A stretch of DNA of 64,000 bases. It comes from an uncultured Gammaproteobacteria bacterium (GTDB lineage: Bacteria; Pseudomonadota; Gammaproteobacteria; Chromatiales; Chromatiaceae). Location of the stretch: the NCBI GenBank assembly GCA_963736235.1, contig CAVTOR010000032.1:109-64108 (forward strand), written 5' to 3'. This document shows positions 13,793 through 53,872 of the stretch, piece by piece; position 1 is the first letter of the stretch, and each line of letters starts with the position of its first letter. The position numbers were made by a program, and so were the translations under genes. The notes under the pieces were generated by a model. That model was not told the DNA's origin and searched no databases. It saw only the letters and a list, made by a program, of their open reading frames with translations.

Positions 13793-13853
<61 letters not shown>

Positions 13854-34293: not shown

Positions 34294-34661
34294 TCAGTTT
34301 TTGGGAAAGGAACACATGCGCACACGGACTCGATACGGACTCATCGGCACCCTCGACGACGAGGCCTGTATGCCATTGCCAAGTAAGGCGAGAGGGGAAG
34401 GGAAGCCACCCCGCCGATCGTTCGTAGCGATCGACTGCCGGCTGCCCATTCCGTTAGGATCAACGAGCCCGATGCCGGCCAAGGGTGCAGTCCCGAGACC
34501 TGCTTCGTTTCGGACGCGCCATGTCTGTTGATACGCCACGCCGCAAGGATCCAGCGCTCCCCGTCAGGGTTGCCGGATTCTGGTGCGTGCTCTCCCATAT
34601 ACGGGCTTGCGAGCCGACAAGTTCAACCCACCCGAGAGGCATCATCGGCTATCGTTCGTTT

Positions 34662-37600: not shown

Positions 37601-38603
37601 CTTCTCCTTCGAGAGTAACGACGTGCTGCCGCCGAGCTATGTCATGAACGTCGCCAACACCGGCCAGGACGGACTCGACTTCAGTTTCCCGGCCGGAGCG
37701 GCGGTATGCCTGACGCTGAATTCACCGAGCCTGCCGGTGTACGCCGGGTCGGATCGGGCACTCATGGACAACGCGGTGAGCCTACCCGACTTCGGATCCT
37801 GCGACCCCGGCGGCTCAATCCTCAGCGCCGGTGACGTGACGGTGACGGAGAATGCCGGAACGGCGGTATTCACCGTCAATCTCTCGCCGGCGCCCGGTGC
37901 CGGGGAATCGGTGGTCGTCGGCTACCAGACCCAGAATGGCAGCGCCGTGGCCGGTAGCGACTACACGACCACGGCCGGCACGCTGACCTATACCCAGGGA
38001 CAAACGCAGAAGACCGTCTCGGTGCCAATCACCAACGACACGACCCCGGAGAGCAACGAGAGCTTTGGTCTGCAACTGACCAGCGCCGACACTAACACGG
38101 TGAATGCCAGGGCCATCATCCTCGACGACGACAGCGGCGGTGCGCTGCCGCGGCAGAAGGTCTACACCGTTTCTCCCTGCCGGGTGGTCGACACCCGCGG
38201 CGCCGACCCGCAGCTTTCCACCTTCTCTGGGGATCGTCTGGCCCCCGGAGAGACGGTGTCGTTCTACGTCACCGGAAACCTGATCAACGGTCAGGGTGGA
38301 GCGGCGATCTGCGGCATCCCCCCCGAGGCCACCGGTGTGTTCGCCAACGTCGTGGCGGTGCGTCCGCAGGGCAGCGCGATCAGCAACTATCTGACGGTCT
38401 ACCCTTACGGCGAGAGCCGACCGCTCGCCTCGACCGTCAACTACCCGGCAGACATCACCGCCTTGGCCAACGGCGTGCTGGTGCCCCTGTGTGATCCGGC
38501 AGCAGCGACCTGTGACTACGATCTCAACGTCTACAACTACACCAGCCTCGCGGCGCACCTGGTGATCGATGTCACCGGATACCTCGCCGCGTCGGCGCCT
38601 TGA
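34662..38603 (+). CDS. secreted FG-GAP/VCBS - ASPIC/UnbV - (unknown module + Calx-beta) x2 protein with 4-Cys C-terminal domain (paralog B)
   Basis: Same architecture as A, plus a duplicated ~130-aa Cys-containing module, each copy followed by a Calx-beta domain. Start at ATG 34662 is provisional (long n-region before 'LIGVSCALSLALSPAALA'). Confidence 0.8.
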   Translation: MGTEDFCDCFRHRPHFGSKTPITKSLIGVSCALSLALSPAALAIEFLDVTATAGPFPVTESWGATAVDVNGDGWTDLWHNSHRSRPYLYLNEGNGVFSDITLAADRSDTWIGEYGADQHAGTWGDFDNDGDQDLFVATGINFDAQLLVNQGGYFVDQTAYYGMLVDYEGQGAYWLDFSGDAYLDVLSSRPDGGKLYEQLPLVGFRNRTLQTGFECQRGWINLADLSVDGKPDVLCAFTDGIKSVFDISPYATSDGATPFADITSILPAVPALTDTVAGDFDGNLQSDIVGLLGVLRRNGADLVTPDRIEANFQVSAPKPYVGFDFAGGDQLKITVQSVQFNPNHILIGSAGTRAPDSVFTLDSADGSTHGLAEADPNAQSLNIGYMGAGRWEVRVYPDPVRNWRGHIIVERLSGASFSELGYTGQSQWDLPAQPVLLMNENGFFTNQAATRGLDQAVSCASAGVGDFDNDMDLDLYFVCQTAASNIANRLYENLGDGTFVEVASAGGAMGPVGGSSGDAVGAGDSVVVADLDADGFLDLFVTNGLNLEPVRVGGPVKLYRNVGNSNRWIELDLVATSTSRDALGAQVFVMAGGVTQLREQGGGYHRWSQDDKRIHFGLGQNTLVETITVHWPSGVIDTYFDVPVNALYRITEGMGGLAGVLEAVNLDSVGPLPSPGLGDECGEPVYDHEYGPALLLWRDCPTDTWHVRAKGGRNEDAVRYFSGSLQADAAFPSVAGFQLDGNDTLYVGMEDRIEFSLGVWFANDNGFDFDATGLTSLCLALDAPVGTRVLFGVGRWPVQGALDLLSLRPCAGPAYTLDVPDISAAEGGGAARFTVNLTPAPGAGESVVVSYQTQDGSAVAGSDYTTMAGTLTYTQGQTQKTVSVPITNDTTPESSESFTLNLTSADTNTVNASATILDDDSSGTLPACGQPAYDNATESAVFVWNDCGTNDWHVRVTAGGQTLSYQGTLTSDQGFTTMTAFSFESNDVLPPSYVMNVANTGQDGLDFSFPAGAAVCLTLNSPSLPVYAGSDRALMDNAVSLPDFGSCDPGGSILSAGDVTVTENAGTAVFTVNLSPAPGAGESVVVGYQTQNGSAVAGSDYTTTAGTLTYTQGQTQKTVSVPITNDTTPESNESFGLQLTSADTNTVNARAIILDDDSGGALPRQKVYTVSPCRVVDTRGADPQLSTFSGDRLAPGETVSFYVTGNLINGQGGAAICGIPPEATGVFANVVAVRPQGSAISNYLTVYPYGESRPLASTVNYPADITALANGVLVPLCDPAAATCDYDLNVYNYTSLAAHLVIDVTGYLAASAP
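38151..38603 (+). repeat. C-terminal-domain coding module, copy in paralog B
   Basis: See 33841-34293. Confidence 0.8.
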
Positions 38604-38623
38604 TCAGCTTTTGGGAGAAACAC

Positions 38624-39148
38624 ATGCGCACACTGACTCGATATGGATTCATCAGCACCCTGCTGGCTTCGTTCACCTTCAACCCCGCGGCCCAGGCGGG
38701 TGGCCCCTACGTCATCCACACCGTGTCGCCGTGCCGTGCGGTCGACACCCGTACCGCCGACCCGCAGCTTTCCACCTTCTCCGGGGATCGCCTCGCCCCT
38801 GGAGAGACCGTGCCCTTCTTCGTGACCGGTGCCCTGATCACCGGCCAGGGCGGAGAAGCCGACTGCGGCGTGCCCGCCGCGGCAACGGGCGTGTTCGTCA
38901 ACGTCACGGCCGTGCGCCCACTGGGCAGCGGCACCAGCGGCTACTTGACTCTCTATCCCTATGGTGAGAGCCAGCCGACGGCCTCCACCATCAACTACAT
39001 GTCAGACGCCACCGCCGTGGCCAACGGCGTGCTGGTACCCCTGTGTGATCCGGCCGCAGCGACCTGTGACTACGATCTCAATGTCTACAACTTCACCAAC
39101 CTCGCGGTGCATCTGGTGCTGGACGTTACCGGGTACCTGACCGAATGA
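38624..39148 (+). CDS. stand-alone secreted copy of the 4-Cys C-terminal domain (174 aa)
   Basis: Signal peptide 'MRTLTRYGFISTLLASFTFNPAAQA'. The rest is collinear with the last ~150 aa of paralogs A, B and C, with all four Cys conserved. Confidence 0.8.
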   Translation: MRTLTRYGFISTLLASFTFNPAAQAGGPYVIHTVSPCRAVDTRTADPQLSTFSGDRLAPGETVPFFVTGALITGQGGEADCGVPAAATGVFVNVTAVRPLGSGTSGYLTLYPYGESQPTASTINYMSDATAVANGVLVPLCDPAAATCDYDLNVYNFTNLAVHLVLDVTGYLTE

Positions 39149-39207
39149 GGTTAATCGTGTCGACCATCTCAACTTCCTGCGGCGGTTCTCTGACGGACAA
39201 GCCGGAC

Positions 39208-42061
39208 ATGCCGAGGCGTTCACCGATGTTAAGCCGGGCTTGGCGCAGCAGGGCAGCCGTGAATGCCGCGGGCAGATCGCTGCTCAAGCTCACCCGCCGT
39301 CATGGGCTCATTGCCGGATCCGCCCTCCTGCTCTTTCTGCCGATCGCGGCCCAAGCCGCCATCGGCGCCAACCAGTTTGTGGAAGCCACCGCCGGAGGCG
39401 TGCCGGTGATCGACAGCCCCGGTGAGACCTGGGGTGCTTCCTGGGGAGACTACGACGCCGACGGCGATCCCGACCTGTGGATGGGCAAGCACCAGTTCAC
39501 CCCAAGCGCCCTGTATCGCAACAACGGCAACGGCAGCTTCACGAACGTCATCGACAGCGCCGTGATCAATGCCGTCGATCACTACACAGACGACACCCAT
39601 GGCGCGGCCTGGGCGGACTTCGACAACGATGGCGACCAGGACCTGATCGAGGTCTGCGGCGCCGGCGCCGGCGCGGTCGGCAGCGATCCGGTCATCAGCG
39701 ACGCCTGGCGCAACAACCTGTACATTAACGACGGCGGGACCCTCGCAGAGGACGCCCTGAGCTACGGCGAGATCGAATACCCCACCGGGCGCTCGCGCAC
39801 CCCCCTGTGGCTCGATTTCGACACCGACGGACTGCTCGACTTCGCCATCTCCGCCCTGCAGACGACTCCCGAGCAGGCCCCCTCGGCGGTGCTGCGCCAG
39901 GACCTGCTCGGCTTCTTCGATGCCAATGCCGCGGCGGGCTTCCCTGGCGGTAGCTGCCAGAACATGATGCTTGGACACCTCGGGCCGAACGGGGAGCCGG
40001 CGCTGATCTGCGGTGGCGGTGTGCAGATCCAGAGCATCCACGACATCTCCGCCGAACCCTTCATCGACCTGCGCCCGGTCCTCGGCAACGCCGTCTTCAA
40101 CGCCTTTGTCTACGATATGGCCATCGGTGACTTCAACGGCGATCTGCGCCCGGACATCGTCGCCGGCATCACGCCTCCCAGCCTCTCCACGGCGGTGCGC
40201 ATCGGGCCGGCCAACGACCGCATTCACGCCTATCTCGCCCCCTCCGTGACAGAGCGCGGGTTCTCCTTCACCGCCCCCGGCAACGTCGACATCGAATTCG
40301 GCTGGGAGACCGACGAGCAGGACATCTTCCTCGGCGCCAACGCCGTGCCCCCGCCGGCGGACGCCGATCAGGGGCTGCAGGGGCCCGATCGCTTCCCCCA
40401 CCACGTGCAGCTCACCCTCTCCAGCGCCAACTCCGATCATCTGGGCATGGCCGCCAACCGCAGCGCCGGGATCTACATCGGCTATGTCAGCGGCCGTTGG
40501 GAAGTGCGCGTGGTCAATGCCGGAGCCGATGTCAACGTCCTCGCGCGTGCCGGCGGCATCTCCGCCCCGGCCGCCATCGGCGATACCAGCCTCACCCAAG
40601 GTGCTCCCGTTGCCCCGGCGCTCTTCGAGAATCAGGCCGGGGAACTGGTCGCACGTGCCACGGGTGATGTCTTCCTCGATCCACTCGCCAGTGTCCAGAC
40701 CTACGCCCGATCCGTCGTGGCCGGCGACCTCGACAACGACATGGACCTCGACATTTACGTCGGATCCAGCGGGCGCGTGGCCAATGTACCCAACCTCCTG
40801 TTCGACAACCAGGGCGACGGCACCTTCCGCCTGGTGGGCAACGCCGCCGGCGCCGCCGGCGCCACGCCTCGGGCGCACCGACACCGTGACCCTGGTCGAC
40901 TACGATCAGGACGGTTTTCTCGATCTCTTCGCTACCCAGGGCAACTACCCCGCGCCCTTCTCCTACGACGCCGAGCAGCAGCTCTTCCGCAACCAGGGCA
41001 ACGCCAATCACTGGGTCCTGGTCAACCTGCGCGGGGTTGTCTCCAATCGCGACGGCGTCGGCGCCGTCGTCTACGCCAGCACCCCCGACGGCAAGATCCA
41101 GCTGCGCGAACAGGCCAACGGGGTTCACCGCTACGCCCAGGATTACGTGCAGACCCACTTCGGCTTGGGAGCGAATACCACCGTCGATCTCGAGGTGCAC
41201 TGGCCGAGTGGCATCGTCGAAAGCTTCAACGACCTGGCCGCGGATCAGATCTACACCCTGGTCGAAGGTACGAGCGGCGGCTACGCGCTCAGCGCCGGCA
41301 ACGTAACGGTGGACGAGGCTGCGGGAACGGCGGTATTCACCGTCAACCTCTCGCCCGCGCCCGGCGCCGGGGAATCCGTGGTGGTGAGCTACCAGACCCA
41401 GGATGGCAGCGCCCAGTCCGGGAGCGACTACACGGCCGTTTCGGGCACCCTTACCTTCACGGAGGGCCAGACAAAGAAGCCGGTCTGGGTGCCGATCACA
41501 GACGACGCGGCCGCCGAGAGCAACGAGAGCTTCAACCTGCAACTGACCAGCGCTGACACCAACACCGTGAACGCCAGCGCCACCATCCTCGATGATGACA
41601 GCGGCGGCGCGCTGCCGCGGCTGAAGGTCTACACCGTTTCTCCCTGCCGGGTAGTCGACACCCGCAGCGCCGACCCGCAGCTTTCCACCTTCTCCGGGGA
41701 CCGTCTGGCCCCCGGAGAGACCGTGTCTTTCTTCGTCACCGCAAACCTGATCAATGGTCAGGGCGGAGCGGCGAACTGCGGCATCCCCGCTGCGGCCACC
41801 GGGGTGTTCGCCAACGTCGTCGCGGTCCTTCCGCAAGGCAGCGCGATGAGCAACTATCTGACGGTCTATCCTTACGGCGAGAGCCGCCCGCTCGCCTCGA
41901 CCATCAATTACCCGGCAGACATCAATGCCTTGGCCAATGGCGTGCTGGTACCCCTGTGTGATCCGGGCGTAGCGACCTGTGACTACGATCTCAACGTCTA
42001 CAACTACACCAGCCTCGCGGCGCATCTGGTGATCGATGTCACCGGGTATCTGGCCGAATGA
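39208..42061 (+). pseudogene. FG-GAP/VCBS - ASPIC/UnbV - Calx-beta protein with 4-Cys C-terminal domain (paralog C), one frameshift near 40845-40870
   Basis: The N-terminal ~550 aa are in the frame of ORF 39145..41556. From 'LGRTDTVTLVDYDQDGFLDLFATQG' onward the protein is in the frame of ORF 40484..42061. The junction lies in a gccgccggc repeat. Start is ATG 39208 or 39226. Confidence 0.8.
41618..42061 (+). repeat. C-terminal-domain coding module, copy in paralog C
   Basis: See 33841-34293. Similarity to the region after the stand-alone gene continues ~80 nt past the stop (42062-42140 versus 39149-39230). Confidence 0.75.
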
Positions 42062-42593: not shown

Positions 42594-43070
42594 TCAGGCG
42601 GTGCGGTTTTGCCACCATTCTCGGTAGGCGTCGTCAGGGGCGATGAGCTTGGCCTTCGCCGTGGTGTACCTGTTGCCGTTGGGATCGTCCAGCGTGATGT
42701 CGACCTCGACGATGGCACCGCGGAGCCGCGTGATCTCGACGGTGACCAGGATCTCGTCCCCCGGACACACAGGCTTGCGCAGCCGTTCGGGAGTGAAGGT
42801 GAGTCCGAGCGTGCCGTCGCCGGGAAACTCGCTGCCGAAGATGCCCGAGATGCTGATCTGGATCAGCCCGCCGGGAACGACGATGTCCCTGACATCGGGG
42901 AACCGCAAGCGGGCCGCCTCCAGCTCACGATGGATCGCGTTCCTGTCCCCGCTCAAGGCGCAGTATTGAGCCACCTGCTCGTGGGTGAAGTTGAGCCTGG
43001 TCCGGTGCGTCATTCCGACCCCAAGCATGGGGGCGGTCATACAATCTGTGTCAGCCATCGGGATCTCCAT
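42594..43070 (-). CDS. MaoC-like (hot-dog fold) dehydratase domain protein
   Basis: Motif 'FTHEQVAQYCALSGDRNAIHRELEAA' followed by a hot-dog beta region. Several candidate ATG starts. Confidence 0.65.
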   Translation of the reverse strand: MEIPMADTDCMTAPMLGVGMTHRTRLNFTHEQVAQYCALSGDRNAIHRELEAARLRFPDVRDIVVPGGLIQISISGIFGSEFPGDGTLGLTFTPERLRKPVCPGDEILVTVEITRLRGAIVEVDITLDDPNGNRYTTAKAKLIAPDDAYREWWQNRTA

Positions 43071-43226: not shown

Positions 43227-46200
43227 GTGGCCTTCAAGCATCGCATTCTGTTGGTGATTCTGGCTCTTGGGGCCTATTCTCAGATCGTGCAGGCCATGTT
43301 GATCCGCGAGGGCCTGGTGGTCTTCTACGGCAACGAGATCAGCCTCGGCGCCTTCTACGGCAGTTGGCTGTTCTGGCTCGCGGTAGGCTCGGTGGCGGTG
43401 GTGCGCGCGCGGGACCGGCGCCTTGTCCGCGATGCGGCGGCCTCATTGCGGTGGCTGCTCCTGCTGCTGCCGCTGCTCCTCGTCGGACAGGTGCTCGCGC
43501 TGCGCTCGCTGCGGCTGCTCCTGGATGTCTCCTCCAGTGAATTCGTGCCCCTTGGGGAGCTTTTCCTGTCTTTGTTCTTGATCACCATCCCAAGCGGACT
43601 GGTGCTCGGTATTTCCTTCCCGCTGGCGTGCAAGGCGCTCCGGGACGCCGCCGGGGATCTCGGCGCAGCCGGTGCGGTGACTGTGGTGTCGCGTCTTTAC
43701 GCTGTGGATGCGGTGGGGGCACTGCTGGGCGGAGTGCTCTTCACCTTTGTTCTCATCCAGTGGTTTGGCCTCGTTCAGACGCTGGGACTCGTCACCCTGG
43801 CGCTCGCGATTGGGGCCTGGTCGTTGGGGACGGAGCCTGGGCGGCACGGATGGGGGGCACTCGCGCTTGCCACGGTCGGCTTGATGGTGGCGGTGACCCC
43901 GATTGCGCATCTTCTCGAACGCGAGTTGGAAGAGCTTCGTTTCGCTACCCTGCAGCCGGGCATGGAGCTGCTCGACGCGGTGGATACCCGCTACGGTCAC
44001 GTCGCCCTTGCCCGGATCGGAGAGCAGATCTCCGTGGTGGGTGATGGCCAGGTGCGAGAGAGCTTCCCGCTGAGGCGGGAGGTGCAGCAACAGGCGGCCT
44101 ATTTCTACAGCCAGGCGGCGGGCGGAAAGCGGGCGCTTCTGTTCGGCGGCTTCGCGGGTGGCCTGCCTGCGGAGCTGCTGCGCTATCCGCTTGAGCGGAT
44201 GGAGGTGGTGGAGGAGGATCGGGTCGCCTTCGATCGGGTGCGGCCCTTCATGACCCCGGAGGCCGAGCAGGCGCTCGATGATCCGCGCCTGAGACTCACG
44301 TTTCTGGACGGGCGCCGGTTCGTCAACCGGTTGCCGTCGGATCAACTCTACGACCTGGTCCTAGTGCTCAACGCCGCCCCCTCCAGTGCCAGCAGCAATC
44401 GCTACTTCACCCGCGATTTTTACCTGCAGGTGCGCGAGCATCTGTCTCCGGACGGCGTCTTCTGCACCCAGGTCAGCGGAGCCTCCAATTACCTCGGACG
44501 AGAGGTCGGCGGATACGCGGGCTCGGTCTACAGGACGCTCCAAGCCATCTTTCCGCATGTCGCCATTGTGCCCGGGGACGTGCAGATCTTCTGCGCCTCG
44601 TCCACCCCGGGGCGGGTGAGTGAGGAGGCGGTGACGCTGGAGCGGCGCTATCTCGCCACTCCTCTGGACGAGCACCGCTTCCCGGCGGCGACCTTCTACA
44701 GCCTGCTGTCCGCGGAGGAGATCGACTACATGCGAGGGCGGCTCGAGGCGGCCACGGGGGAGGTCAATACCGACGAGCGGCCCGTGACCTACTACCTGAA
44801 CATGGTCCTGTGGGGGAAGTTCAGCGCCTCGGGCTTCGTCGATTGGCTGGAGCGGTTGCGGGGCATGGGTCCGTGGCCCTATCTGCTGCCGGCATGTCTG
44901 TTCGTCGCGCTGTGGTTGCTGCGCGCGGGTTTCGAGGGGTTCCGCCGGCCGGTCATGCAGCGCCAGGGGGCGACCTTCCTGCTCGGGATTCTCGGCCTGA
45001 TCGCGATGGCGGCGCAGCTCGCGGTGCTTTTCAGCTATCAGTCCCACGTCGGGTTCATGTTCGAACGTGTGGCGGTGCTCAACGGGCTGTTCATGACGGG
45101 GCTCGCCCTGGGCGCCGGGTTGGGGCGGAACCTGGCGCTCAAGCGGAGGCCCGTCACCGCGCTGACGGTGGTCATGATCCTGGTCGCCGGGGGGTTGCTC
45201 GCGCTCCCGGCGGCGATGACGCAGTTGGGCGCGGGCGCCTCCTCGTGGCAGGAGGCCGGTTATCTGATCCTGGCCCTCATGGTCGGTCTGCTGACCGGGA
45301 CCGCCTTTCCGCTCGGATTCCACCTGGCCCATGCCGACCTCGGGGAGATCGTCCACAGCGGCGGCATCGCGCAGGCGGCGGACAACCTGGGTGGAGCGGT
45401 CGGCGGGTTGATAGCCGGGGCGCTGATGGTGCCGCTGCTGGGGGTGGAGGGCACCTGCCGAGTCCTGGCCGTATTGTCTCTGGTCTGCCTTCTGCCTCTG
45501 TTGTACGCACGGCTGGCGCCGGAATCGGTGGCCCGGGACAGGGGGTTCGTGTCCTTCCCCTGGCCGCGATTGGGTTGGACTCTCGCCTTTGCCGTGCTGC
45601 TGGTCTACGGGTGGAGCCTGCTGGAGCGTGGGACCGAGCCGGGGCCGCGGGTCCGTTTCGACGATGGCCGCCTGGCGGATGTGAGCGGAGACGGGCGATT
45701 CGAGCTGGTGGAGAAGCCTTTTCCCCACTACCTGGTCACGCCCGCCGGCGCGTCGGGTGCGGATGCCGCCATTCTCTCTACCATGGCGGCCGCGCCCGAG
45801 GTGAGCGGGTTCGCCGGTCCCATCAACCTGCTCCTTGCCATCGGCCGGGAGGGGAGGTTGAGGGGCGTGCGTTATCTGCAGTCCGATGAGACGCCATCCT
45901 ACATCGTCGGGATCGACGGCTGGCTCGTGGGCTTGGCGGGTCAGGATCTCTCCTCCGGTCCCCTCGAGTTGGATCGGATTGACGCCCTGAGCGGCGCCAC
46001 GGTCACCAGTCGCGCCGTCCTCGACGCGATCAACCGCAGCGCACGCCGGGTTACCGAGGCCGCCTTCGGGTCTCCCGTTCCGCCGGAGGAAGAGGGGTCG
46101 CGGCCAGCACTGGATGCCGCCTTTTATGCGACCTTGGCGTTGTTGTTGGCCTTCTTTCCCATCTATCTGTCGGGCAGCGAGCGGCTCCGAATCTTGTATC

Positions 46201-46853
46201 AGGTGGCCGCTCTGGGCACGCTTGGCCTGTGGCTCAACACCCCCATCACCGAGATCGACCTGGTGAATCTCAGCCTGGGCCACGCCGCCTCTCCACTGGA
46301 GAACCCTCAGCGCTGGCTGCTCTTGGGTTTCGTCCCCGTGACCGGCCTGCTGTTCGGCCAGGTCTGGTGCGGCTATATCTGTCCCTTCGGCGCCCTGCAA
46401 GAGTTGGTCTCGCGGCTAGGCCGCCTGCTCGGCCTGCGCGCCTATCCGGATCGGCGCCTGGAGCAACGGGCGCGCTTTCTCAAGTTCGTCTTCCTGGCCC
46501 TGATGCTGGTGGCGGTCTGGGTCGGCGGCGATACCCTGTGGGCTTCCTTCGACCCCATGCAGCACATCTTCGGCGGGCGGCTCGCGGGCTGGATGCTGAT
46601 CCTGGCCGGGACCGTGCTTCTCGGGTCCCTGTTCTACGTGCGCTTCTGGTGCCGATACTTCTGTCCCCTCGGTGCCCTGCTGGCGCTCGGGAACAAGATC
46701 GCCCTGCTGGAGCGCTTCGCCCCCAGGCGCCGCTTCGAACACTGCGATCTGGGCGTGAAGGACAGATTCGACGTGGACTGCATCCGCTGCAGCCGTTGCC
46801 TCTCCGGTGCCGATACCCGGGTGCGCCATCGCCGGCGGGAGACCGGGGCCTGA
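43227..46853 (+). CDS. membrane fusion protein: TM block - spermidine-synthase-like domain - TM block - FMN_bind domain - NapH/NosR-like Fe-S membrane domain
   Basis: GTG start. Spermidine-synthase-like core 'DTRYGHVALARIGE...LLFGGFAGGLPAELL...LDGRRFV...YDLVLVL'. FMN_bind with flavinylation-type motif 'DALSGATVTS' (SGAT at 45990-46001). Two CX3CP motifs, 'WCGYICPFGALQE' and 'WCRYFCPLGALLAL'. Terminal 'CIRCSRC'. Confidence 0.8.
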   Translation: MAFKHRILLVILALGAYSQIVQAMLIREGLVVFYGNEISLGAFYGSWLFWLAVGSVAVVRARDRRLVRDAAASLRWLLLLLPLLLVGQVLALRSLRLLLDVSSSEFVPLGELFLSLFLITIPSGLVLGISFPLACKALRDAAGDLGAAGAVTVVSRLYAVDAVGALLGGVLFTFVLIQWFGLVQTLGLVTLALAIGAWSLGTEPGRHGWGALALATVGLMVAVTPIAHLLERELEELRFATLQPGMELLDAVDTRYGHVALARIGEQISVVGDGQVRESFPLRREVQQQAAYFYSQAAGGKRALLFGGFAGGLPAELLRYPLERMEVVEEDRVAFDRVRPFMTPEAEQALDDPRLRLTFLDGRRFVNRLPSDQLYDLVLVLNAAPSSASSNRYFTRDFYLQVREHLSPDGVFCTQVSGASNYLGREVGGYAGSVYRTLQAIFPHVAIVPGDVQIFCASSTPGRVSEEAVTLERRYLATPLDEHRFPAATFYSLLSAEEIDYMRGRLEAATGEVNTDERPVTYYLNMVLWGKFSASGFVDWLERLRGMGPWPYLLPACLFVALWLLRAGFEGFRRPVMQRQGATFLLGILGLIAMAAQLAVLFSYQSHVGFMFERVAVLNGLFMTGLALGAGLGRNLALKRRPVTALTVVMILVAGGLLALPAAMTQLGAGASSWQEAGYLILALMVGLLTGTAFPLGFHLAHADLGEIVHSGGIAQAADNLGGAVGGLIAGALMVPLLGVEGTCRVLAVLSLVCLLPLLYARLAPESVARDRGFVSFPWPRLGWTLAFAVLLVYGWSLLERGTEPGPRVRFDDGRLADVSGDGRFELVEKPFPHYLVTPAGASGADAAILSTMAAAPEVSGFAGPINLLLAIGREGRLRGVRYLQSDETPSYIVGIDGWLVGLAGQDLSSGPLELDRIDALSGATVTSRAVLDAINRSARRVTEAAFGSPVPPEEEGSRPALDAAFYATLALLLAFFPIYLSGSERLRILYQVAALGTLGLWLNTPITEIDLVNLSLGHAASPLENPQRWLLLGFVPVTGLLFGQVWCGYICPFGALQELVSRLGRLLGLRAYPDRRLEQRARFLKFVFLALMLVAVWVGGDTLWASFDPMQHIFGGRLAGWMLILAGTVLLGSLFYVRFWCRYFCPLGALLALGNKIALLERFAPRRRFEHCDLGVKDRFDVDCIRCSRCLSGADTRVRHRRRETGA

Positions 46854-46981
46854 GCGAATTCCCGGCGCATGCCCTGAAGCGGGGACAGTTCGCATCTCCC
46901 TACTCATAGATGAGGGGGAGCTCCGGCCCGACGCCGATCGTCTAAGCTTTTGATAGCGCGGTCATTCGGGAACCCCAAGTT

Positions 46982-47236
46982 ATGGGCGTGTGGATCAAGC
47001 GGTTGCACCTTCGCGAGCTGAGGTTTCTCGGCCTGATTGCGATCTCCGTCTCGCTCATGGCGCTGCACCTGGGTTCCAGCCTGCGTCTCAACGATCAGGA
47101 AGGATCGGGCTGGCGCAAGATCGACCTGGAGGCCCTGCAGCGGCGCATCGAGACCGGGGAGCTTAGGGAGAGGGAGGCGGATTGGTATCACCCGGCCACG
47201 CCGGAGGAGATCAGACCCTCGAGAGGCGCGCCATGA
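46982..47236 (+). CDS. small single-pass membrane protein (84 aa) with C-terminal 'READWYHP' motif
   Basis: Positively charged N-terminus, TM helix 'FLGLIAISVSLMALHL', hydrophilic tail. The stop overlaps the next ATG (ATGA at 47233-47236). Confidence 0.55.
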   Translation: MGVWIKRLHLRELRFLGLIAISVSLMALHLGSSLRLNDQEGSGWRKIDLEALQRRIETGELREREADWYHPATPEEIRPSRGAP

Positions 47237-48211
47237 GCGAGGTCACCTGCGAGCTCTGTCCGCGTGGCTGCGTGATCCCCGAGGGCGGGGCGGGGGATTG
47301 CCGGATCCGGGTCAATCTGGACGGCAAGCTGCGGGCCACCACCTACGGGCGTCCCTCCGCCATCCACATCGACCCGATGGAAAAGAAGCCCCTCTACCAC
47401 TTCCGCCCTGGCTCCCCGGTGTTCTCCATCGCCACCGCCGGGTGCAACCTGCATTGCCTCAACTGTCAGAACTGGCAGCTCTCACAGCGCGGGGGAGGAA
47501 ATGGAGACGGTCTATAGGGCCGATCCCTGGGAGCTGGTCCAGGCCGCTAAGGAAGAGGGCTGCCAGAGCATCGCCTACACCTACTCGGACCCGGTCGTCT
47601 TCTACGAGTACGTTTACGACAGCAGCGCGCTGGCCCATCGGGAGGGCCTGACAAACCTCTTCATCACCGCCGGCTACATCAACCGAAAACCCCTGCGCAA
47701 GCTCTGCCGGGTTCTGGACGCGGCCAATGTCGATCTCAAGGCCTTCGACGACGACTTTTACCGGCGCGTGAGCGGCGCCACGCTCCAGCCGGTGCTGGAC
47801 GCCCTGGTCACCTTGCGCGAGGAGGGGGTGTGGCTCGAGGTGACGAATCTGCTGATTCCCACGTTGAACGACGACCTGGCGCTGATTCGGCGCATGGTGC
47901 GGTGGATCCGCGATGAGCTGGGGGAGGGCACGCCCCTGCATTTCAGCCGCTTCCATCCCCAGTACCGGATGCGAAATCTGCCGCCGACGCCGGGGGAGGC
48001 GCTGGACCGTGCCCGCGGCGAGGCCTTGGACGCGGGCCTGCACTATGTCTACGTCGGAAACATTCCCGGTCACGAGGGTGGTTCGACCTATTGTCCGAAC
48101 GATGGCACCCTGCTGATCGGGCGTACCGGCTTTTTGATCACCGAGAACAACCTGACAGCGGATGGCCGCTGTCCCTCCTGTAACGAGAAGATTCCGGGAG
48201 TCTGGCAATGA
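47233..48211 (+). pseudogene. AmmeMemoRadiSam-system-type radical SAM enzyme (copy 2), one frameshift in the G5 run 47491-47495
   Basis: 'CELCPRGC' and 'CNLHCLNCQNWQLSQ' (CxxxCxxC) are in frame 1. 'EEMETVYRADPWELVQAAKEEGCQSIAYTYSDPVVFYEY ... CPNDG...CPSC' are in frame 2. Confidence 0.8.
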
Positions 48212-48384
48212 AATCCAAACCTGAGTGGGAGCCGAAGCGGCTCGGGCGCAGGCGTTTCCTCGGTTTCCTAGGCGGCGTGGGCGCGGCTGGATTGCCTCTG
48301 CCGCTGCTGCATCGACAATGGATGGCCGACGAGCGGAGTCTCAAGGAGGCGGATTTCTACCGTCCCCACGACCTGGCCGGGTGA
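48208..48384 (+). CDS. 58-aa twin-arginine (Tat) signal protein with C-terminal 'KEADFYRPHDLAG' (below the ORF-track length cutoff)
   Basis: 'MKSKPEWEPKRLGRRRFLGFLGGVGAAGLPLPLL' matches the Tat consensus (RRxFL + h-region). The ATG overlaps the rSAM stop (ATGA). It ends 5 nt before the next ATG. Confidence 0.55.
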   Translation: MKSKPEWEPKRLGRRRFLGFLGGVGAAGLPLPLLHRQWMADERSLKEADFYRPHDLAG

Positions 48385-48389
48385 AAGCG

Positions 48390-49979
48390 ATGGGGCGAAG
48401 GCTGTTGCTGAGGAGGCTGGCCTGGCTCGGGGCGGGTTGGCTCCTTGCCTTGTCGGTCGCCGCTGACGGGCGGGTGCGAGAGAGCGCCCTTGCGGGTGCC
48501 TGGTACCCCGACGACCCTGGCGAGCTGTCCGAGTATGTGGACGGCCTGCTCGATGCCGCAACCACCGCGCCGCCGCTGGAACCCATCCGTGCGCTGATTC
48601 TCCCCCACGCGGGCTATGTCTACAGCGGCGCGACCGCGGCACAAGCCGTCGTCCTGGTGCGGGGGCGCGAGTTCCGGCGGATTATGATTCTCGCCCCCTC
48701 GCACCAAAGCGGATTCGCGGGTCTGTCCATCCCCGACGTGGACGCCTACGAGACGCCGCTGGGGGAGGTTCCGCTCGATACGGCGGCGATCGCCGGTCTG
48801 CGCGGTTCACGGTTGGTCCTCAACGACCCCGCCGCGCACGAACGTGAGCATGCGATCGAGATCGAGCTGCCTTTGCTCCAGCGTGCGCTCTCACCCGGAT
48901 GGAAGCTGGTTCCGGTGTTGGTTGGTCGGATGGCGTCCGACGACTATGCCGAGGCGGCCGATCTGCTACGGCCTCTGGCCGACGCCGAGACCCTGATGGT
49001 CGTCTCCAGCGACTTCACCCACTACGGACCCCGGTTCGGCTACATGCCCTTCCCGCCGGATCAGGGGGTCGCCGACCGCATCCGTGAGCTGGACGACGGG
49101 GCCATCGCCCGCATCCTGGCCGGCGACGGGCCGGGACTCCTGGACTATCAGGCGCAGACCGGGATCACCATCTGCGGCTACCGGCCCCTGACGCTGCTGC
49201 TCCACATGCTCCCCGCCGATGCGCGTATACAACCGGTGGCTTATGCCACGAGCGGCGCGCTCACCGGGGACTGGAGCAACTCGGTCAGCTACGCAGCCAT
49301 GCTGGTCACGGGTCCCAGCCCTTTGTCGGGGGTCGAGGCGCCATCGCCTGCGCCCGATCAAGGTTCATATGACGAGGAGGATCTGCACCTGCTTCACCGC
49401 CTGGCGGTGCTCGGCGTCGAGCGCACTGTGCTTGGCCCCTCCGCAGACCGCGACGCCCGGATCAGTGCCCTCGTGAGCCGAATGCCTGAACATCTGGGGG
49501 CGCCCGGCGGGGCGTTCGTCACGCTCAAGCAGGGCGGGCACCTGCGCGGCTGTGTCGGCTATATCTGGCCGCGGAAACCCCTCTATCAGACCGTGCTGGA
49601 AAATGGCGCCAACGCCGCAGCGAACGACAGGCGCTTCCGGCCCGTGGGGGCGGACGAGCTGGAGCGCCTGGAAGTGGAGGTGAGCGTGCTGTCGCCACCT
49701 CGCCCCATCGCCTCCCCGGGTGATTTCCGGGTGGGGGATGAGGGCGTCATCCTGCGCAAGGATGGCCGGCAGGCCGTATTTCTGCCGGAAGTGGCGCGCG
49801 AGCAGGGGTGGACACGGGAGGAGACGCTCTCCGAGCTCGCACGCAAGGCCGGGCTGGAGGGCGGCGACTGGCGCGAGGGGGCCTCGTTCGAGGTCTTCAG
49901 CAGCACCAAGTACGCGGCACCCTACCTGGGCTCATCCCAGGCCGATTCGGCTCAGGGCAACTCCACCACCCTGAGATAG
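48390..49979 (+). CDS. AmmeMemoRadiSam system protein B (MEMO-like) fused to protein A (AMMECR1-like), with N-terminal signal/anchor
   Basis: N-terminus 'MGRRLLLRRLAWLGAGWLLALSVAADG'. MEMO motifs 'AGAWYPDDP', 'PHAGYVYSG', 'EHAIEIELPLLQ', 'SSDFTHYGPRFGY'. AMMECR1 motifs 'GAFVTLKQGGHLRGCVGYI' and 'AVFLPEVAREQGW'. Confidence 0.85.
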   Translation: MGRRLLLRRLAWLGAGWLLALSVAADGRVRESALAGAWYPDDPGELSEYVDGLLDAATTAPPLEPIRALILPHAGYVYSGATAAQAVVLVRGREFRRIMILAPSHQSGFAGLSIPDVDAYETPLGEVPLDTAAIAGLRGSRLVLNDPAAHEREHAIEIELPLLQRALSPGWKLVPVLVGRMASDDYAEAADLLRPLADAETLMVVSSDFTHYGPRFGYMPFPPDQGVADRIRELDDGAIARILAGDGPGLLDYQAQTGITICGYRPLTLLLHMLPADARIQPVAYATSGALTGDWSNSVSYAAMLVTGPSPLSGVEAPSPAPDQGSYDEEDLHLLHRLAVLGVERTVLGPSADRDARISALVSRMPEHLGAPGGAFVTLKQGGHLRGCVGYIWPRKPLYQTVLENGANAAANDRRFRPVGADELERLEVEVSVLSPPRPIASPGDFRVGDEGVILRKDGRQAVFLPEVAREQGWTREETLSELARKAGLEGGDWREGASFEVFSSTKYAAPYLGSSQADSAQGNSTTLR

Positions 49980-50791
49980 ATGTCGCGATCGACGCGCCGC
50001 TGGCCGTCGGCGCGGTGAAACAGGCCCTGCCGCGAATGGCTCTCCGCGACCGACGCACCACCCAGGGATATCCACTCGCCTAGATTCCCGCTGACCTGAG
50101 ACTCTACCGCCCCGGTAGGGGTAGATCCGCGCCGATCCAGCGAGCCGCTGGCGAAGGCGCTGATCTCCAGCGTTACCCGATTGCCGGTCACACGAGGCAG
50201 CACATAGAAGCCGGACCCGCTCCGCTCATAGGTCACCCCGCCGCGGCTGTAGGTCCCGCCGGGGCCTCTGTAGCGCTCCTGGTAACCCACGGGAGAGTCG
50301 CTCCCGACGGCGATGAAGGCGCGATGGCCTTCGAGCACCCGCACCTCCTGAGATACCGCCTGCTCCCCCCGGCGACTGCCGCTGAGGGCCTCGATGCGGG
50401 TTCCACCGCCTGATCGCGGCGGGCCCGTGCGAATTCGCACCCGGTCTCCCGCCACCTCGTCAATCGCCACGCCGACACCCGACCCGGAGCGGTCCGACTC
50501 GGTGTTTTGGCGTACCTGGATCAGCAGGTTACGGGGAGCGCGGTCCAGATGCCGCAGCGCCCGCCGGATCTCTTCCAAGGTCTGCGGCGAGGCGCGGATG
50601 AAAAGCGTGTTCCCGGTGCCGGCGACCGTGCCGTCGGGACCCGCGATTGGCGCCAGCAGGGGGATAAGATCCTCCGCGGGTCGGCTCGAAAGGTTGACGA
50701 TCTCCAGCGGATAGTCCGCCCACGCCACGGAGTGGAGAAGGGACCAGACCGAAACGGCGACGATGACTGCTCGTGAGAAATTCGACCTCAT
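49952..50791 (-). CDS. short secretin-like periplasmic/outer-membrane protein (Secretin_N-type domain plus compact beta region)
   Basis: Signal peptide, then 'LEIVNLSSRPAEDLIPLLAPI...GNTLFIRASPQTLEEIRRALRHLD'. The later 'VRVLEGHRAFIAVG ... GFYVLPRV ... VSGNLGEWISLGG' resembles a secretin core. The 3' end overlaps the convergent gene by 28 nt. Confidence 0.5.
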   Translation of the reverse strand: MRSNFSRAVIVAVSVWSLLHSVAWADYPLEIVNLSSRPAEDLIPLLAPIAGPDGTVAGTGNTLFIRASPQTLEEIRRALRHLDRAPRNLLIQVRQNTESDRSGSGVGVAIDEVAGDRVRIRTGPPRSGGGTRIEALSGSRRGEQAVSQEVRVLEGHRAFIAVGSDSPVGYQERYRGPGGTYSRGGVTYERSGSGFYVLPRVTGNRVTLEISAFASGSLDRRGSTPTGAVESQVSGNLGEWISLGGASVAESHSRQGLFHRADGQRRVDRDIYLRVVELP

Positions 50792-51348: not shown

Positions 51349-51799
51349 CAGCGAGCGTCATTCTGCGGTGGGGGATGCCCGCCTCGTCGAAGGCGTGTCC
51401 AACAGGTTGGAATCCGGCACGCAAATAGAAGGGGAGGGCCGAGGTCTGGGCATTGAGAAAGATGTCCGGGTATCCGTCGTCGGCCGCGATCTGCAGGATC
51501 TCACGCAACAGGGCGCTGCCCACGCCCTGCCCGCGCCGCTCCGGAAGGACTGCCATGCGCCCGATCTGGCCGGTCGGCAGCAGGCGGGCCGTGCCGATGG
51601 GGCGGCCGGCGCCGTCCAGCGCCAGCAGGTGGACGGCGGTCGTGTCCTGGTCGTCCCATTCCGACGACTCCGGGACTCCCTGTTCGTGCACGAATACATC
51701 CAGGCGTATCCGCCTGAGGGCACCGCGATCGCGGCCCCAGTCCGCACGTCGGATGCGGTAGGCGGTCGGGTCAGGCGTCGAGCTCATGATGGCCGTCAT
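51323..51799 (-). CDS. GNAT-family N-acetyltransferase
   Basis: Motif 'RMAVLPERRGQGVGSALL' (acetyl-CoA binding R-x-x-G-x-G). Confidence 0.8.
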   Translation of the reverse strand: MTAIMSSTPDPTAYRIRRADWGRDRGALRRIRLDVFVHEQGVPESSEWDDQDTTAVHLLALDGAGRPIGTARLLPTGQIGRMAVLPERRGQGVGSALLREILQIAADDGYPDIFLNAQTSALPFYLRAGFQPVGHAFDEAGIPHRRMTLAGASHATAE

Positions 51800-52946
51800 T
51801 GTACAGTCGACAGAGCAGGGTCAGACAATCGGGTCGCGCGAGCCATGGAGCGAGCGTTTCGAGCTCCAATGTGGCTTCCCGGGTGATGAGAGAGAGCAGG
51901 GGGCGGTGCTCCGATGCGAGCGAATAGGCCTCTCCGTTCGCGAACAGCAGATCTTCGCCGCCCCTCCCGCGGCACCAGGCAAGCCGGCTGAAGCCGTTGC
52001 GGCGGAGCGCACCGCCCCCTCGCATGGCTTCGAGAAACTCATCGGGCGCCAGCGGCGTCTCGCTCGGAAAGACCTGCAAATGCTCTTTCGGTTCGGTGGC
52101 GAACCGCCCAAACCACTCTTGGAACAGGCGCTCGGGTGCCTCCGCGAGCCCTTGCTCGAGGGTGTGCCGAATCTGGTCGAATACCTCCGGGCGGATCTCG
52201 CCCGGGTCCAGATCGGGTGGCAGGTCGCCATCGCGGTAGCGGCCGGGTGACAGGGTGGACTCGGACGCCCGATCGCACCAGGATGCGGCCATCTCCCGCC
52301 AGGTGGCGGAGCGGAACCCGACCGACCAGGTCATGCAGGGACCCTCGGCGATGCCCCAGTGGGGGATTCCGGGCGGAAGGTAGAGGACGTCACCGGGTTT
52401 CATCAGGTAATCCTCCCGAGGCTCGAACCGTTGCAGGATGCGCAGGTCGATGTCCGGGATGACGGGGCCGTTCGGCCCCGGGATCGGGTCGATGCGCCAG
52501 CGCCGCCTACCCTCGGCTTGGATCAGGAATACGTCGTACTCGTCCACGTGCGGGCCCACCGATCCTTTGTCCGCCGCAAAGCTGACCATGATGTCGTCCA
52601 CCCGCCAGCTTGGGAGGAAGCGGAAGACGGAGAGCAGCTCGGCCACGTGCGGGACAAACTTGTCCGCGTCCTGTACCAGCAGGGTCCAGTGGCTGGCCGG
52701 TAGCTTGGCGAAGTCGGCTATATCGAGGGGGCCGTGACGAACCTCCCAGGGACGCTCGCCGTCGCGTTCCAGGATCAGGCGCGACTCAAGCTCGGGCTCG
52801 CAGGCGAGCCCGGCCAACTCCTCCGCGTCGAGCGGGCTGGAGAATCCCGGCAGGGCCTGCGGCATCGGCAGCGGCCGGCGTTGCCAGTAGGCGGCGAGAA
52901 AGGACGCGGCGTCGATACCGGGCGGAAAGCGCAGTTGCGTGAACAC
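51771..52946 (-). CDS. roxA: JmjC/cupin ribosomal protein uL16 arginine hydroxylase (RoxA/YcfD-like)
   Basis: Collinear by eye with E. coli YcfD: 'FLAAYWQRRPL', 'DAEELAGLA', 'WTLLVQDADKF', 'GSVGPHVDEYDVFLIQAEGRRRWRI', 'GDVLYLPPGIPH'. GTG start at 52946, 27 nt after the upstream gene. Confidence 0.8.
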   Translation of the reverse strand: MFTQLRFPPGIDAASFLAAYWQRRPLPMPQALPGFSSPLDAEELAGLACEPELESRLILERDGERPWEVRHGPLDIADFAKLPASHWTLLVQDADKFVPHVAELLSVFRFLPSWRVDDIMVSFAADKGSVGPHVDEYDVFLIQAEGRRRWRIDPIPGPNGPVIPDIDLRILQRFEPREDYLMKPGDVLYLPPGIPHWGIAEGPCMTWSVGFRSATWREMAASWCDRASESTLSPGRYRDGDLPPDLDPGEIRPEVFDQIRHTLEQGLAEAPERLFQEWFGRFATEPKEHLQVFPSETPLAPDEFLEAMRGGGALRRNGFSRLAWCRGRGGEDLLFANGEAYSLASEHRPLLSLITREATLELETLAPWLARPDCLTLLCRLYNDGHHELDA

Positions 52947-52972
52947 GGGCGGAGGCTCCCTGATGGTTTCGG

Positions 52973-53872
52973 TCAGATTTCCTGGGTGCGAGCGACCGGT
53001 TGCCCGTCCGCGCGCCACGGCCAGATCCGTCGGGAGCCGACCAGCAGTCCGGCGACCAGGATCAGCAGTGATCCGGCGACGGTCCACCACGCGAGAATCT
53101 CGTCCCAGAGCAGCCAGCCGTAGGCGGCGCCGAAGATGACCGAGAAATAGCCAAAGGTGCCCATCCGTGCCGCCGGAGCGAGCGACAGACCCCGCGTGAG
53201 GCAGACTTGCCCGAGGGTCGCGAACAGGGCGACCGCGAGGAGCCAGCCCACGGCCTCGAGCGAAGGGGTCGTCCATGCCCAGGCGAGCGGGATGGCGGAA
53301 ATCAGGCCGGCGGTGAGCGCGAAGAAAAAGACAATGCGCAGAGGCGGCTCGGTGCGCGACAGTCGGCGCACCGTCACCTTGGCGACCGCCGCGAACAGTC
53401 CGCCGAGCAGCGCGATCAGGGCTACTGGTGAGATACCCTGCAGGCTCGGGCGCAAGATCAGCAGCACGCCGCAGAATCCGATGGCGATGGCGAGCCAGAC
53501 CCTGGGATTTACCTCCTCATGCAGCCATATCAGTGCGACCAGGGGCATAAACAGGGGTGATGTGAGCTTGAGCAGCATCGCATCCGCCAACGGCATGTGG
53601 GCGATGGCGTAGAAAAAGCAGTACATTGCGCTGACCCCAGCGATGCCGCGGAGAAGATGCAGGTGAGGAACCGACGTACGCAAGCCGGGGAGACCGGGAC
53701 GCAGCAGCCAGGGGGCCAGCAGGCAGAGCCCGAACAGGTTGCGGAAGAAGACGATCGACTCGTTGGGGAGGGCGTGGGCGACCAGGCGTATGGCCACCCC
53801 CATGGATGCGAACATGAGCTCGCCGGCGACGATGAAGGCGGCGCCCAGCCAGAGATTCTGCCGGATGTCCAC
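52973..53872 (-). CDS. DMT-superfamily (EamA-type) transporter
   Basis: About 10 TM helices in two EamA-like halves. Confidence 0.75.
   Translation of the reverse strand: MDIRQNLWLGAAFIVAGELMFASMGVAIRLVAHALPNESIVFFRNLFGLCLLAPWLLRPGLPGLRTSVPHLHLLRGIAGVSAMYCFFYAIAHMPLADAMLLKLTSPLFMPLVALIWLHEEVNPRVWLAIAIGFCGVLLILRPSLQGISPVALIALLGGLFAAVAKVTVRRLSRTEPPLRIVFFFALTAGLISAIPLAWAWTTPSLEAVGWLLAVALFATLGQVCLTRGLSLAPAARMGTFGYFSVIFGAAYGWLLWDEILAWWTVAGSLLILVAGLLVGSRRIWPWRADGQPVARTQEI

Follow-up and report, generated by a model that had tools for sequence, protein, structure and literature searches.

The window analysed here is a 64,000-nucleotide (nt) stretch of DNA from an uncultured gammaproteobacterium of the Chromatiaceae (GenBank assembly GCA_963736235.1, contig CAVTOR010000032.1, positions 109 to 64,108 of the forward strand). 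Between positions 43227 and 49979 of this window, the list of open reading frames (ORFs) contains five plus-strand genes, namely those for a 1208-amino acid (aa) membrane fusion protein, an 84-aa protein with a single transmembrane (TM) helix (p84), a radical S-adenosylmethionine (SAM) enzyme, a 58-aa protein carrying a twin-arginine translocation (Tat) signal, and a 529-aa fusion of Memo (protein B) to AMMECR1 (protein A). Proteins A and B and the radical SAM enzyme comprise the AmmeMemoRadiSam system, whose canonical form is described in TIGRFAMs as a three-gene set of unknown function. We describe here the linkage of this system to a putative transmembrane electron conduit, in this operon and in related ones.

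All three AmmeMemoRadiSam families are present at this locus. Proteins A and B pass their model cutoffs, the radical SAM enzyme would do so once its reading frame is repaired (see below), and their genes lie close together, joined by a 4-nt overlap or a 5-nt gap. Direct reading locates ATGA stop/start overlaps at 47233-47236 and 48208-48211, and 5 nt (48385-48389) separate the 58-aa gene from the Memo-AMMECR1 start codon at 48390. The gene order and junctions are exactly those of the original prediction, made from the sequence of the window, which had further proposed that the genes are translationally coupled; retention of the 4-nt overlaps in independently annotated relatives, including locus L085, agrees with that proposal. 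A longer gap of 128 nt (46854-46981) lies between the fusion gene and the 84-aa gene. Two minus-strand genes bound the operon, a divergent MaoC-like one (42594-43070) at the fusion end and a convergent secretin-like one (49952-50791) at the Memo-AMMECR1 end. A scan of the operon found neither sigma-70-like sites nor plus-strand terminator-like sites within it, and an Rfam scan found no structured RNA inside it, the sole matches being two tRNAs at 20.8-21.0 kb.

The membrane fusion and its partner proteins

The first gene (43227-46853, plus strand) encodes, in order, seven TM helices, a spermidine synthase (SpdSyn)-like domain, eight TM helices, an FMN_bind domain, a five-helix NapH-like part, and a cytoplasmic tail with a four-cysteine (Cys4) motif. 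Pfam matches comprise Spermine_synth (aa 299-416), FMN_bind (aa 861-937) and two copies of Fer4_5/NapH-like (approximately aa 1032-1170), and the NCBIfam matches include partial ones to NosR, NapH/MauN and RnfG. Searches of both databases upheld all domain calls of the original prediction for the five genes; NCBIfam release 20 holds no specific model for the fusion as such.

The FMN_bind domain (45807-46037) matches PF04205 with E=1.9e-11 (44.9 bits against a cutoff of 22), and RnfG- and NosR-type models match it as well. It contains the sequence DALSGAT (D919-T925; 45981-46001), an instance of the ApbE-type flavinylation motif D-x-x-[ST]-G-A-[ST] as defined by Meheust 2021 (PMC8238504), in a domain predicted to lie outside the cytosol. 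D919 and A924 do not vary in a family alignment (alignment A1), and T925 is conserved to at least 90%. The NapH-like membrane part (46320-46736; PF12801 twice, TIGR02163 and the C-terminal region of NosR) possesses two CX3CP motifs, CGYICP and CRYFCP, whose residues C1048, C1052, P1053, C1142, C1146 and P1147 are invariant in the same alignment. So are C1173, C1185, C1188 and C1191 of the motif C-x11-C-x2-C-x2-C in the tail (46743-46799), a putative single [4Fe-4S] site.

Topology was derived from family-averaged hydropathy and lysine plus arginine counts on alignment A1 using the positive-inside rule. Twenty TM helices are predicted, and all lysine- and arginine-rich loops fall on one side of the membrane, opposite the SpdSyn-like domain. 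The predicted layout places the N-terminus inside, the SpdSyn-like domain outside after TM1-7, the FMN_bind domain outside between TM15 and TM16, and the lysine- and arginine-rich Cys4 tail inside after TM16-20, with the CX3CP motifs at cytoplasmic ends within these last five helices. The sidedness agrees whether counted from the N-terminus or back from the FMN_bind domain, and the periplasmic placement of FMN_bind first suggested from the window is obtained again from the family as a whole. By eye, TM5 (YAVDAVGALLGGVLF; aa 150-180, approximately 43675-43766) and TM13 (AADNLGGAVGGLIAG; aa 715-745, approximately 45370-45461) have a motif in common, which suggests that the two seven-helix bundles flanking the SpdSyn-like domain arose by internal duplication.

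Homologues of the fusion are usually labelled ‘spermidine synthase’ or ‘4Fe-4S binding protein’ in their source records. The Rossmann domain behind the former label (aa 229-548; 43911-44870) is predicted to be periplasmic, between TM7 and TM8. A comparison with the aminopropyltransferase structure 6qmm reveals that GGGDG is replaced by GGFAG, with A310 invariant in the family, and VDGSDP by VLNAAP, in which the catalytic aspartate has become Leu381, also invariant in the family, and the second aspartate an alanine. Scores against the spermidine synthase equivalogs fall well under their cutoffs (87 versus 472 bits and 64 versus 260 bits), and the cutoff of NF037959, a subfamily of fused major facilitator superfamily/spermidine synthase proteins, is passed at 53.3 versus 40 bits (aa 68-447). 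Like NF037959 proteins and the membrane-bound SpeE (PRK03612), the present protein begins with a multi-TM region and continues with a SpeE-like Rossmann domain; unlike them, it lacks the aminopropyltransferase catalytic residues, places the domain in the predicted periplasm, and extends into eight further TM helices and a NosR-like half. A genuine spermidine synthase was ruled out on the loss of the catalytic residues and the predicted location, and the substitutions indicate that the domain is catalytically degenerate and not a competent aminopropyltransferase.

With NosR/NirI, the redox half has in common a periplasmic FMN_bind domain bearing an ApbE-type motif, TM helices with two CX3CP motifs, and a cytoplasmic cysteine-rich tail. 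It differs in standing behind 15 TM helices and the SpdSyn-like domain and in carrying one Cys4 motif, where NosR itself has two ferredoxin-type motifs. The score against the NosR model (NF046105) is 70.3 bits versus an equivalog cutoff of 1000, with only positions 476-626 of 680 aligned, and the scanned window ORFs include neither nosZ nor any other nos gene. NapH/MauN proteins (TIGR02163) similarly have paired CX3CP motifs within a set of four to five TM helices; both motifs are present here at a score of 53.5 bits, below the cutoff of 213, with FMN_bind as an extra domain and no NapG, NapA or mau genes at the locus. MauN is a NapH-like protein of a periplasmic cofactor-maturation cluster. 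Membership of either the NosR or the NapH equivalog was ruled out on scores and gene context.

The combination of FMN_bind with a PF12801 membrane protein also recurs in PceC/RdhC and in other NapH-like flavinylated systems. Such units have been described as modules that carry electrons between pools in the membrane or cytoplasm and oxidoreductases outside the cytosol, with NosZ, a reductive dehalogenase, NirS and ExaA among the named partners of the NapH-like systems, and with the reactions and partners of most units stated to be unknown (Meheust 2021, PMC8238504). Memo, AMMECR1, radical SAM and spermidine go unmentioned in the main text and searched supplements of that study.

The 529-aa protein at the other end of the operon (48390-49979) passes the cutoffs for protein B (TIGR04336, 219 versus 26 bits, aa 30-306) and protein A (TIGR04335, 152 versus 99 bits, aa 364-508). 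The metal-site positions of human MEMO1 (structures 7kq8 and 3bcz) align to PHAGY, SH, SSDFTHYG and ICG, giving a complete site, and the AMMECR1 motif is present as LRGCVG (family form LRGC(I/V)G). Ahead of the Memo domain lies a predicted signal peptide, MGRRLLLRRLAWLGAGWLLALSVAADG (48390-48470). A hydrophobic N-terminus precedes the Memo domain in all 33 linked homologues that were scored and in four more judged by eye, taking the form of cleavable signals in Gammaproteobacteria, lipoboxes in Nitrospirota and others, and long anchors in Planctomycetota; the signal or anchor originally noticed on the window protein is thus a property, in one form or another, of every linked Memo-AMMECR1 protein. 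In an exhaustive search of 1.84 billion representative sequences, the best 150 matches are all Memo-AMMECR1 fusions, about two thirds of them with a hydrophobic N-terminus and the others beginning at the Memo domain. At least one of the latter (P0241), considered at first as ‘cytoplasmic’, was rejected as such, its mis-called start concealing a lipoprotein signal with a lipobox.

Neither small protein matches a Pfam family at E up to 10, and NCBIfam offers for them only a generic Tat-signal model. The 84-aa protein (46982-47236), with homologues in gammaproteobacterial loci, is predicted to adopt an N-in/C-out orientation and ends in the tail WRKIDLEALQRRIETGELREREADWYHP. Fusions of 1270-1380 aa from Planctomycetota and from locus L015 carry a C-terminal extra TM helix followed by ‘RDVDLQRIRTMIEQKRLSDREAEFYKK’ or ‘GGQPRDVDLQRIRTMIEQKRLSDREAEFYKK’, matching ‘GSGWRKIDLEALQRRIETGELREREADWYHP’ in p84, and in loci L054 and L039 a tail of the p84 type ends the NapH-like protein. 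These matches indicate that p84 is a split-off C-terminal module of the conduit fusion. Its tail pattern (IDxxxLQxRLxxGxL..EA.WY) may loosely resemble the start of a rhodanese domain. In three Desulfomonilaceae loci (L041 at 14197-15425, L034 and L013), rhodanese-like genes (clusters c31 and c32, judged by eye) are found just downstream of the fusion.

The 58-aa protein (48208-48384; tail ERSLKEADFYRPHDLAG) scores 17.6 bits against TIGR01409, whose cutoff is 16.7. It has an RRRF motif within GRRRFLGFLGGVGAAGL, of the [ST]-R-R-x-F-L-K type and followed by a hydrophobic region, and its export is predicted. RRxF is invariant in 18 orthologues (R14, R15 and F17 in alignment A3). Six lineages, namely Gammaproteobacteria, Magnetococcales, Planctomycetota, Bdellovibrionota, Nitrospirota and Desulfomonilaceae, encode a small RRxF protein between their radical SAM and Memo genes. 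Its tail reads SLKEADFYRPHDxAG in Gammaproteobacteria and Magnetococcales, KKAMFW+K in Nitrospirota, KRAMFSRK in Desulfomonilaceae, and FVRAxRLKKYPG...KWSG in Planctomycetota. Both layouts, N-in/C-out for p84 and twin-arginine for the 58-aa protein, agree with the original prediction that the small proteins face the periplasm.

A frame break in the radical SAM gene

The radical SAM gene had been read as one intact ORF of the AmmeMemoRadiSam type. The family assignment stands, but the single ORF does not: a frameshift had been overlooked. The N-terminal part (47233-47517, frame 1) aligns to TIGR04337 positions 11-93 (E=1.5e-32, 112.8 bits) and holds a CxxCxxxC...C motif and the radical SAM motif CNLHCLNC. 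The C-terminal part (47501-48211, frame 2) aligns to positions 103-333 (E=8.7e-82) and on its own scores 274.8 bits against a cutoff of 220. DNA alignment with loci L001, L002 and L003 places a 2-nt deletion at 47488-47496, where a GC dinucleotide is missing within CAGCGCGGCGGGGAGG, near 47492, causing a premature stop at 47515-47517. Restoring GC yields a radical SAM ORF of 326 aa, and an intact 326-aa gene with the same synteny is present in two approximately 90%-identical strains (L001 and L085, the latter on CALOEE010000017.1). A programmed frameshift was ruled out, the relatives being in frame at the same place.

Two accounts of this break were weighed. In the first, the operon is decaying in this organism and the radical SAM gene is a true pseudogene, as the deletion and its premature stop would suggest and as would accord with a Thiohalocapsa strain (L005, see below) that has lost the gene from its operon altogether. 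This account would be specific to the strain and compatible with a functional system elsewhere. Counting against it, the 6.7-kb operon has, apart from the GC deletion, no uncompensated frameshifting indel relative to L001 (89.5% identical), the gene is intact in two close strains, and the restored gene differs from that of L001 by 43 synonymous and 12 nonsynonymous codon changes, of which 35 and 10 lie downstream of the lesion, a pattern that still looks selected. We therefore read the break as a very recent lesion or an assembly error, given the intact near strains and this substitution pattern.

The neighbouring FG-GAP repeat gene bears on this choice. It appears as overlapping plus-strand ORFs in different frames (39145-41556 and 40484-42061) and, relative to L001, has lost 1 nt at 39835 and gained 1 nt at 40865, which suggests frameshift errors in one or both of these metagenome-assembled genomes (MAGs). 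Given these 1-nt indels, our judgement of the radical SAM break leans towards an assembly error, and a genuinely decaying operon appears possible but rather unlikely.

Recurrence of the gene set across phyla

A search with the 1208-aa architecture gave 272 matches; among the best 120 of these, from which identities were taken, nearly all are full length, at 54-96% identity. Linkage was assessed with the window proteins in 80 loci from a scan of one genome per GTDB species; of these loci, 45 were informative, that is, contained the SpdSyn/FMN_bind/NapH unit with enough flanking DNA. Radical SAM and/or Memo/AMMECR1 genes are located within 10 kb of the unit in 38 of the 45, and the linked loci span at least five phyla, including members of the Gammaproteobacteria, Planctomycetota, Thermodesulfobacteriota, Bdellovibrionota and Nitrospirota. 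In 30 or more related loci the AmmeMemoRadiSam genes are clustered as they are in the window, and the radical SAM enzymes are 51-62% identical across these phyla. Recurrence of the gene set at this frequency and breadth is more than chance.

Four gene arrangements occur, with domain fusions and fissions. The order of the window, fusion, p84, radical SAM, Tat protein and Memo-AMMECR1, is that of Gammaproteobacteria (Chromatiaceae, Sedimenticola, Ectothiorhodospiraceae and tubeworm endosymbionts). Planctomycetota of four orders and a Bacteriovoracaceae MAG (Bdellovibrionota) have radical SAM, Tat protein and Memo-AMMECR1 followed by the fusion. The two halves are divergently transcribed in Desulfomonilaceae and other Thermodesulfobacteriota. 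In Nitrospirota the conduit is split into an approximately 700-aa SpdSyn-TM protein and an approximately 406-aa FMN_bind-NapH protein beside the radical SAM, Tat and Memo-AMMECR1 genes. Sampling from the Memo-AMMECR1 side recovered the same five-gene operon in L081, L082 and L085. Clustering of ORFs from the 80 loci identified no other broadly shared neighbour and no recognisable ApbE; the neighbours are otherwise lineage-specific (such as PolX, DUF72, kinases and rhodanese-like proteins). The association proposed from a single window hence holds across at least five phyla, the fusion and the AmmeMemoRadiSam genes staying together despite their reordering.

These data bear on the simplest alternative, in which the fusion is a polyamine (spermidine) synthase and transporter that happens to lie beside AmmeMemoRadiSam genes. 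The database name ‘spermidine synthase’ and the matches to the PRK03612 and NF037959 models speak for it. A linkage maintained across phyla through rearrangement and fusion events speaks against chance adjacency, as do the loss of the catalytic aspartates and of the GGGDG aspartate throughout the family, the low equivalog scores given above, and the predicted placement of the domain in the periplasm, where there is no decarboxylated SAM. We consider such an adjacency scarcely credible.

Two reduced loci help to identify the partner of the conduit. In Thiohalocapsa sp. PB-PSB1 (L005; CP050890.1, 13693-15669), the fusion is followed directly by an exported Memo-AMMECR1 protein, and the p84, radical SAM and Tat genes are absent from the operon; L050 has only an FMN_bind-NapH protein and an exported Memo. 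Because both keep the conduit and Memo without the radical SAM gene, their composition indicates that the conduit pairs directly with Memo(-AMMECR1) and not with the radical SAM enzyme.

The same loci weigh upon a scheme in which the conduit runs inward, with the periplasmic FMN collecting electrons and the cytoplasmic Fe-S tail reducing the cluster of the radical SAM enzyme, which would then be the true partner. Radical SAM enzymes need a low-potential reductant, and the invariant Cys4 motif lies on the predicted cytoplasmic side. In two archaeal loci (L062 and L067), moreover, a NapH-like gene is found approximately 1.6 kb from a radical SAM gene of the AmmeMemoRadiSam type. These archaeal pairs were set aside as probably coincidental, however, the genes being on opposite strands with unrelated genes between them and the NapH-like protein lacking FMN_bind. 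Beyond the two reduced loci, an inward conduit is at odds with a linkage that tracks with Memo-AMMECR1 export, and with the potential of a quinol/FMN couple, which is too high for a radical SAM cluster without energy input. It appears very unlikely.

A proposed exported Memo-AMMECR1 system and its electron supply

What the operon encodes, we propose instead, is an AmmeMemoRadiSam variant that works outside the cytoplasm and is coupled to a transmembrane electron conduit of the NosR type, a reading to which we assign a probability of roughly 0.7. It departs from the canonical system in the fusion of protein B to protein A, in their export signal, in the gene for a small Tat-motif protein placed between those for the radical SAM enzyme and protein B, in the linkage of the set to a NapH-like conduit with a flavinylation motif, and in the predicted location of the radical SAM enzyme and its partner proteins on opposite sides of the membrane. 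The broader proposition, that these features define an unrecognised cross-phylum class comprising an exported Memo-AMMECR1 protein, a flavinylated NosR-like wire, a periplasmic pseudo-SpdSyn domain, a Tat-exported small protein and a cytoplasmic radical SAM enzyme, we hold to be about evenly balanced between true and false. The extracytoplasmic redox or maturation pathway put forward in the original prediction is supported by the features compared here.

In the proposed mechanism, electrons from the quinol pool or a cytoplasmic donor would enter the Fe-S/CX3CP membrane module, pass to the covalently bound periplasmic FMN, and then move on to the metal centre of Memo in the exported enzyme; the reverse direction is also possible. 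We infer electron supply through the NapH-like module by analogy with NosR, PceC and NapH. This wire would end at the exported Memo-AMMECR1 protein, which would serve as an oxidoreductase for a substrate in the envelope, and its chemistry would therefore be redox chemistry. The copper and iron redox behaviour reported for MEMO1 fits this assignment, of which a periplasmic Fe(III)/Cu(II) reductase or a metallochaperone role would be a plausible specific case. The catalytically dead SpdSyn-like domain with its 14-15 TM helices would probably bind or present the substrate, and the p84 tail module may dock in the periplasm as part of the same complex, in a scaffolding or substrate-presenting role.

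A family that is normally cytoplasmic and is now exported would therefore need a membrane wire of its own, as in the pairs NosR-NosZ, PceC-PceA and MsrQ-MsrP and in DsbD. MsrPQ and DsbD follow the same logic, in which a redox family that also exists in the cytoplasm is placed in the periplasm with a dedicated transmembrane electron supplier. They are functional analogues only, with no sequence relationship to the present proteins and with different cofactors and substrates. MsrQ-like and DsbD systems are likewise covered in PMC8238504. A literature search returned nothing that combines AMMECR1 with NapH, NosR, FMN-binding or spermidine synthase, and no prior description of an exported, conduit-coupled AmmeMemoRadiSam system was found; the survey of Memo gene neighbourhoods by Burroughs et al. 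2019, which is cited in PMC7159879 and lay outside this search, might mention the context.

The radical SAM enzyme would stay in the cytoplasm and act before export, as anSME does on sulfatase precursors. Its target would be either the small Tat protein or the Memo-AMMECR1 precursor prior to Sec export, and the former is weakly favoured because the Tat route implies maturation before export and because the position of the gene is conserved. An alternative makes the small Tat protein, perhaps with the p84 tail, the true substrate of a peptide-cofactor pathway resembling those of ribosomally synthesized and post-translationally modified peptides: the radical SAM enzyme would modify its C-terminal tail in the cytoplasm, the Tat system would export it, and Memo-AMMECR1, supplied by the conduit, would complete the reaction in the periplasm. 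PqqA/PqqE and QhpC/QhpD provide analogues. In at least five lineages, translational coupling joins the small gene to its radical SAM and Memo neighbours on either side, a Tat signal on a protein of 40-70 aa suggests cytoplasmic maturation before export, and the radical SAM enzyme is like the pyruvate formate-lyase (PFL) activases, a group acting on protein substrates. The tail common to the gammaproteobacterial and Magnetococcales proteins contains E-x-x-x-Y, which presumably resembles the PqqA motif. Beyond RRxF, however, the tails differ strongly between phyla, whereas the degree of radical SAM conservation across the same phyla argues for a more conserved substrate. The two reduced loci retain the conduit and Memo without either the peptide or the radical SAM gene, a p84-type tail lies after its TM helix on the periplasmic side, beyond reach of a cytoplasmic radical SAM enzyme, and we know of no peptide in canonical three-gene systems. 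We regard a peptide-cofactor pathway as unlikely, and retain an exported enzyme served by the conduit as the preferred explanation.

Several observations weigh against this preferred explanation. No ApbE (PF02424) turned up in the window ORFs that were scanned, nor within 8-10 kb at L081, L082 and L085. The topology draws exclusively on hydropathy and the positive-inside rule, and this assembly has a broken radical SAM gene. It is also awkward, in terms of topology, that the radical SAM enzyme is cytoplasmic and its partner exported. Beyond RRxF, conservation of the small Tat proteins is poor. Seven loci, mostly of Nitrospirota, have the conduit without AmmeMemoRadiSam genes nearby, and a Magnetococcales locus (L084; JADGCK010000007.1) has the exported radical SAM, Tat and Memo-AMMECR1 set without a conduit within 8 kb. 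At 6607-10825 of the latter locus, a 432-aa Gate-domain (PF07670) membrane protein is encoded after Memo-AMMECR1, in place of the NapH-like fusion, and may be an alternative membrane partner.

Elsewhere in the window, large secreted FG-GAP/Calx-beta/UnbV_ASPIC (CRTAC1-like) proteins of 990, 1372 and 803 aa are encoded just upstream of the operon (31321-41556), in internally repeated DNA that gives several cross-matching high-scoring segment pairs against L001. Downstream, an insertion of approximately 1.1 kb relative to L001 (51820-52941) coincides with a minus-strand gene (51771-53276) that has no counterpart among the syntenic gene calls of L085; it encodes a 501-aa protein of the JmjC_2/ROXA-like ribosomal-oxygenase type, and its ORF overlaps that of an EamA transporter by approximately 300 nt. 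A region of lower GC content (0.58-0.60) at 4711-16673, with a Prim-Pol/PriCT primase, an RtcA-like RNA cyclase and an 828-aa protein combining the archaeo-eukaryotic primase (AEP) and helicase of a TOTE conflict system, is probably a mobile or defence island. Two tRNA genes (20794-21030) lie just upstream of a gene for a 1705-aa PFOR-like protein (POR_N, POR, PFOR_II, Fer4 and TPP_C), which is followed by a 968-aa glutamate synthase small chain/DPD-like protein with a DHODB Fe-S domain (21411-29483 for the pair). A second, unrelated radical SAM protein of 412 aa is encoded near the window start (492-1730, minus strand).

Memo and AMMECR1 are conserved from archaea to humans. MEMO1 has been associated with cell motility as well as with the handling of copper and iron, and AMMECR1 with an X-linked syndrome. 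Export of the pair together with a dedicated conduit constitutes independent genomic evidence that it performs redox chemistry and, if the proposal is true, Memo/AMMECR1 catalysis would consume or yield electrons. This variant also shows that the proteins which hundreds of metagenomic records call ‘spermidine synthase’ do not belong to the aminopropyltransferases, and it gives a partner to one NapH-like flavinylated system out of the many ‘orphan’ ones in the catalogue of Meheust et al. 2021 (PMC8238504). The system is physically separable into a periplasmic enzyme, a membrane wire and a cytoplasmic radical SAM enzyme, and adds the small Tat protein, the p84 tail module and the pseudo-SpdSyn domain as candidate partners, among them a possible substrate or carrier. 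If the proposal is true, these bacteria would offer a genetically tractable setting in which to pursue the long-sought biochemical function of MEMO1 and AMMECR1, a pair conserved up to humans.

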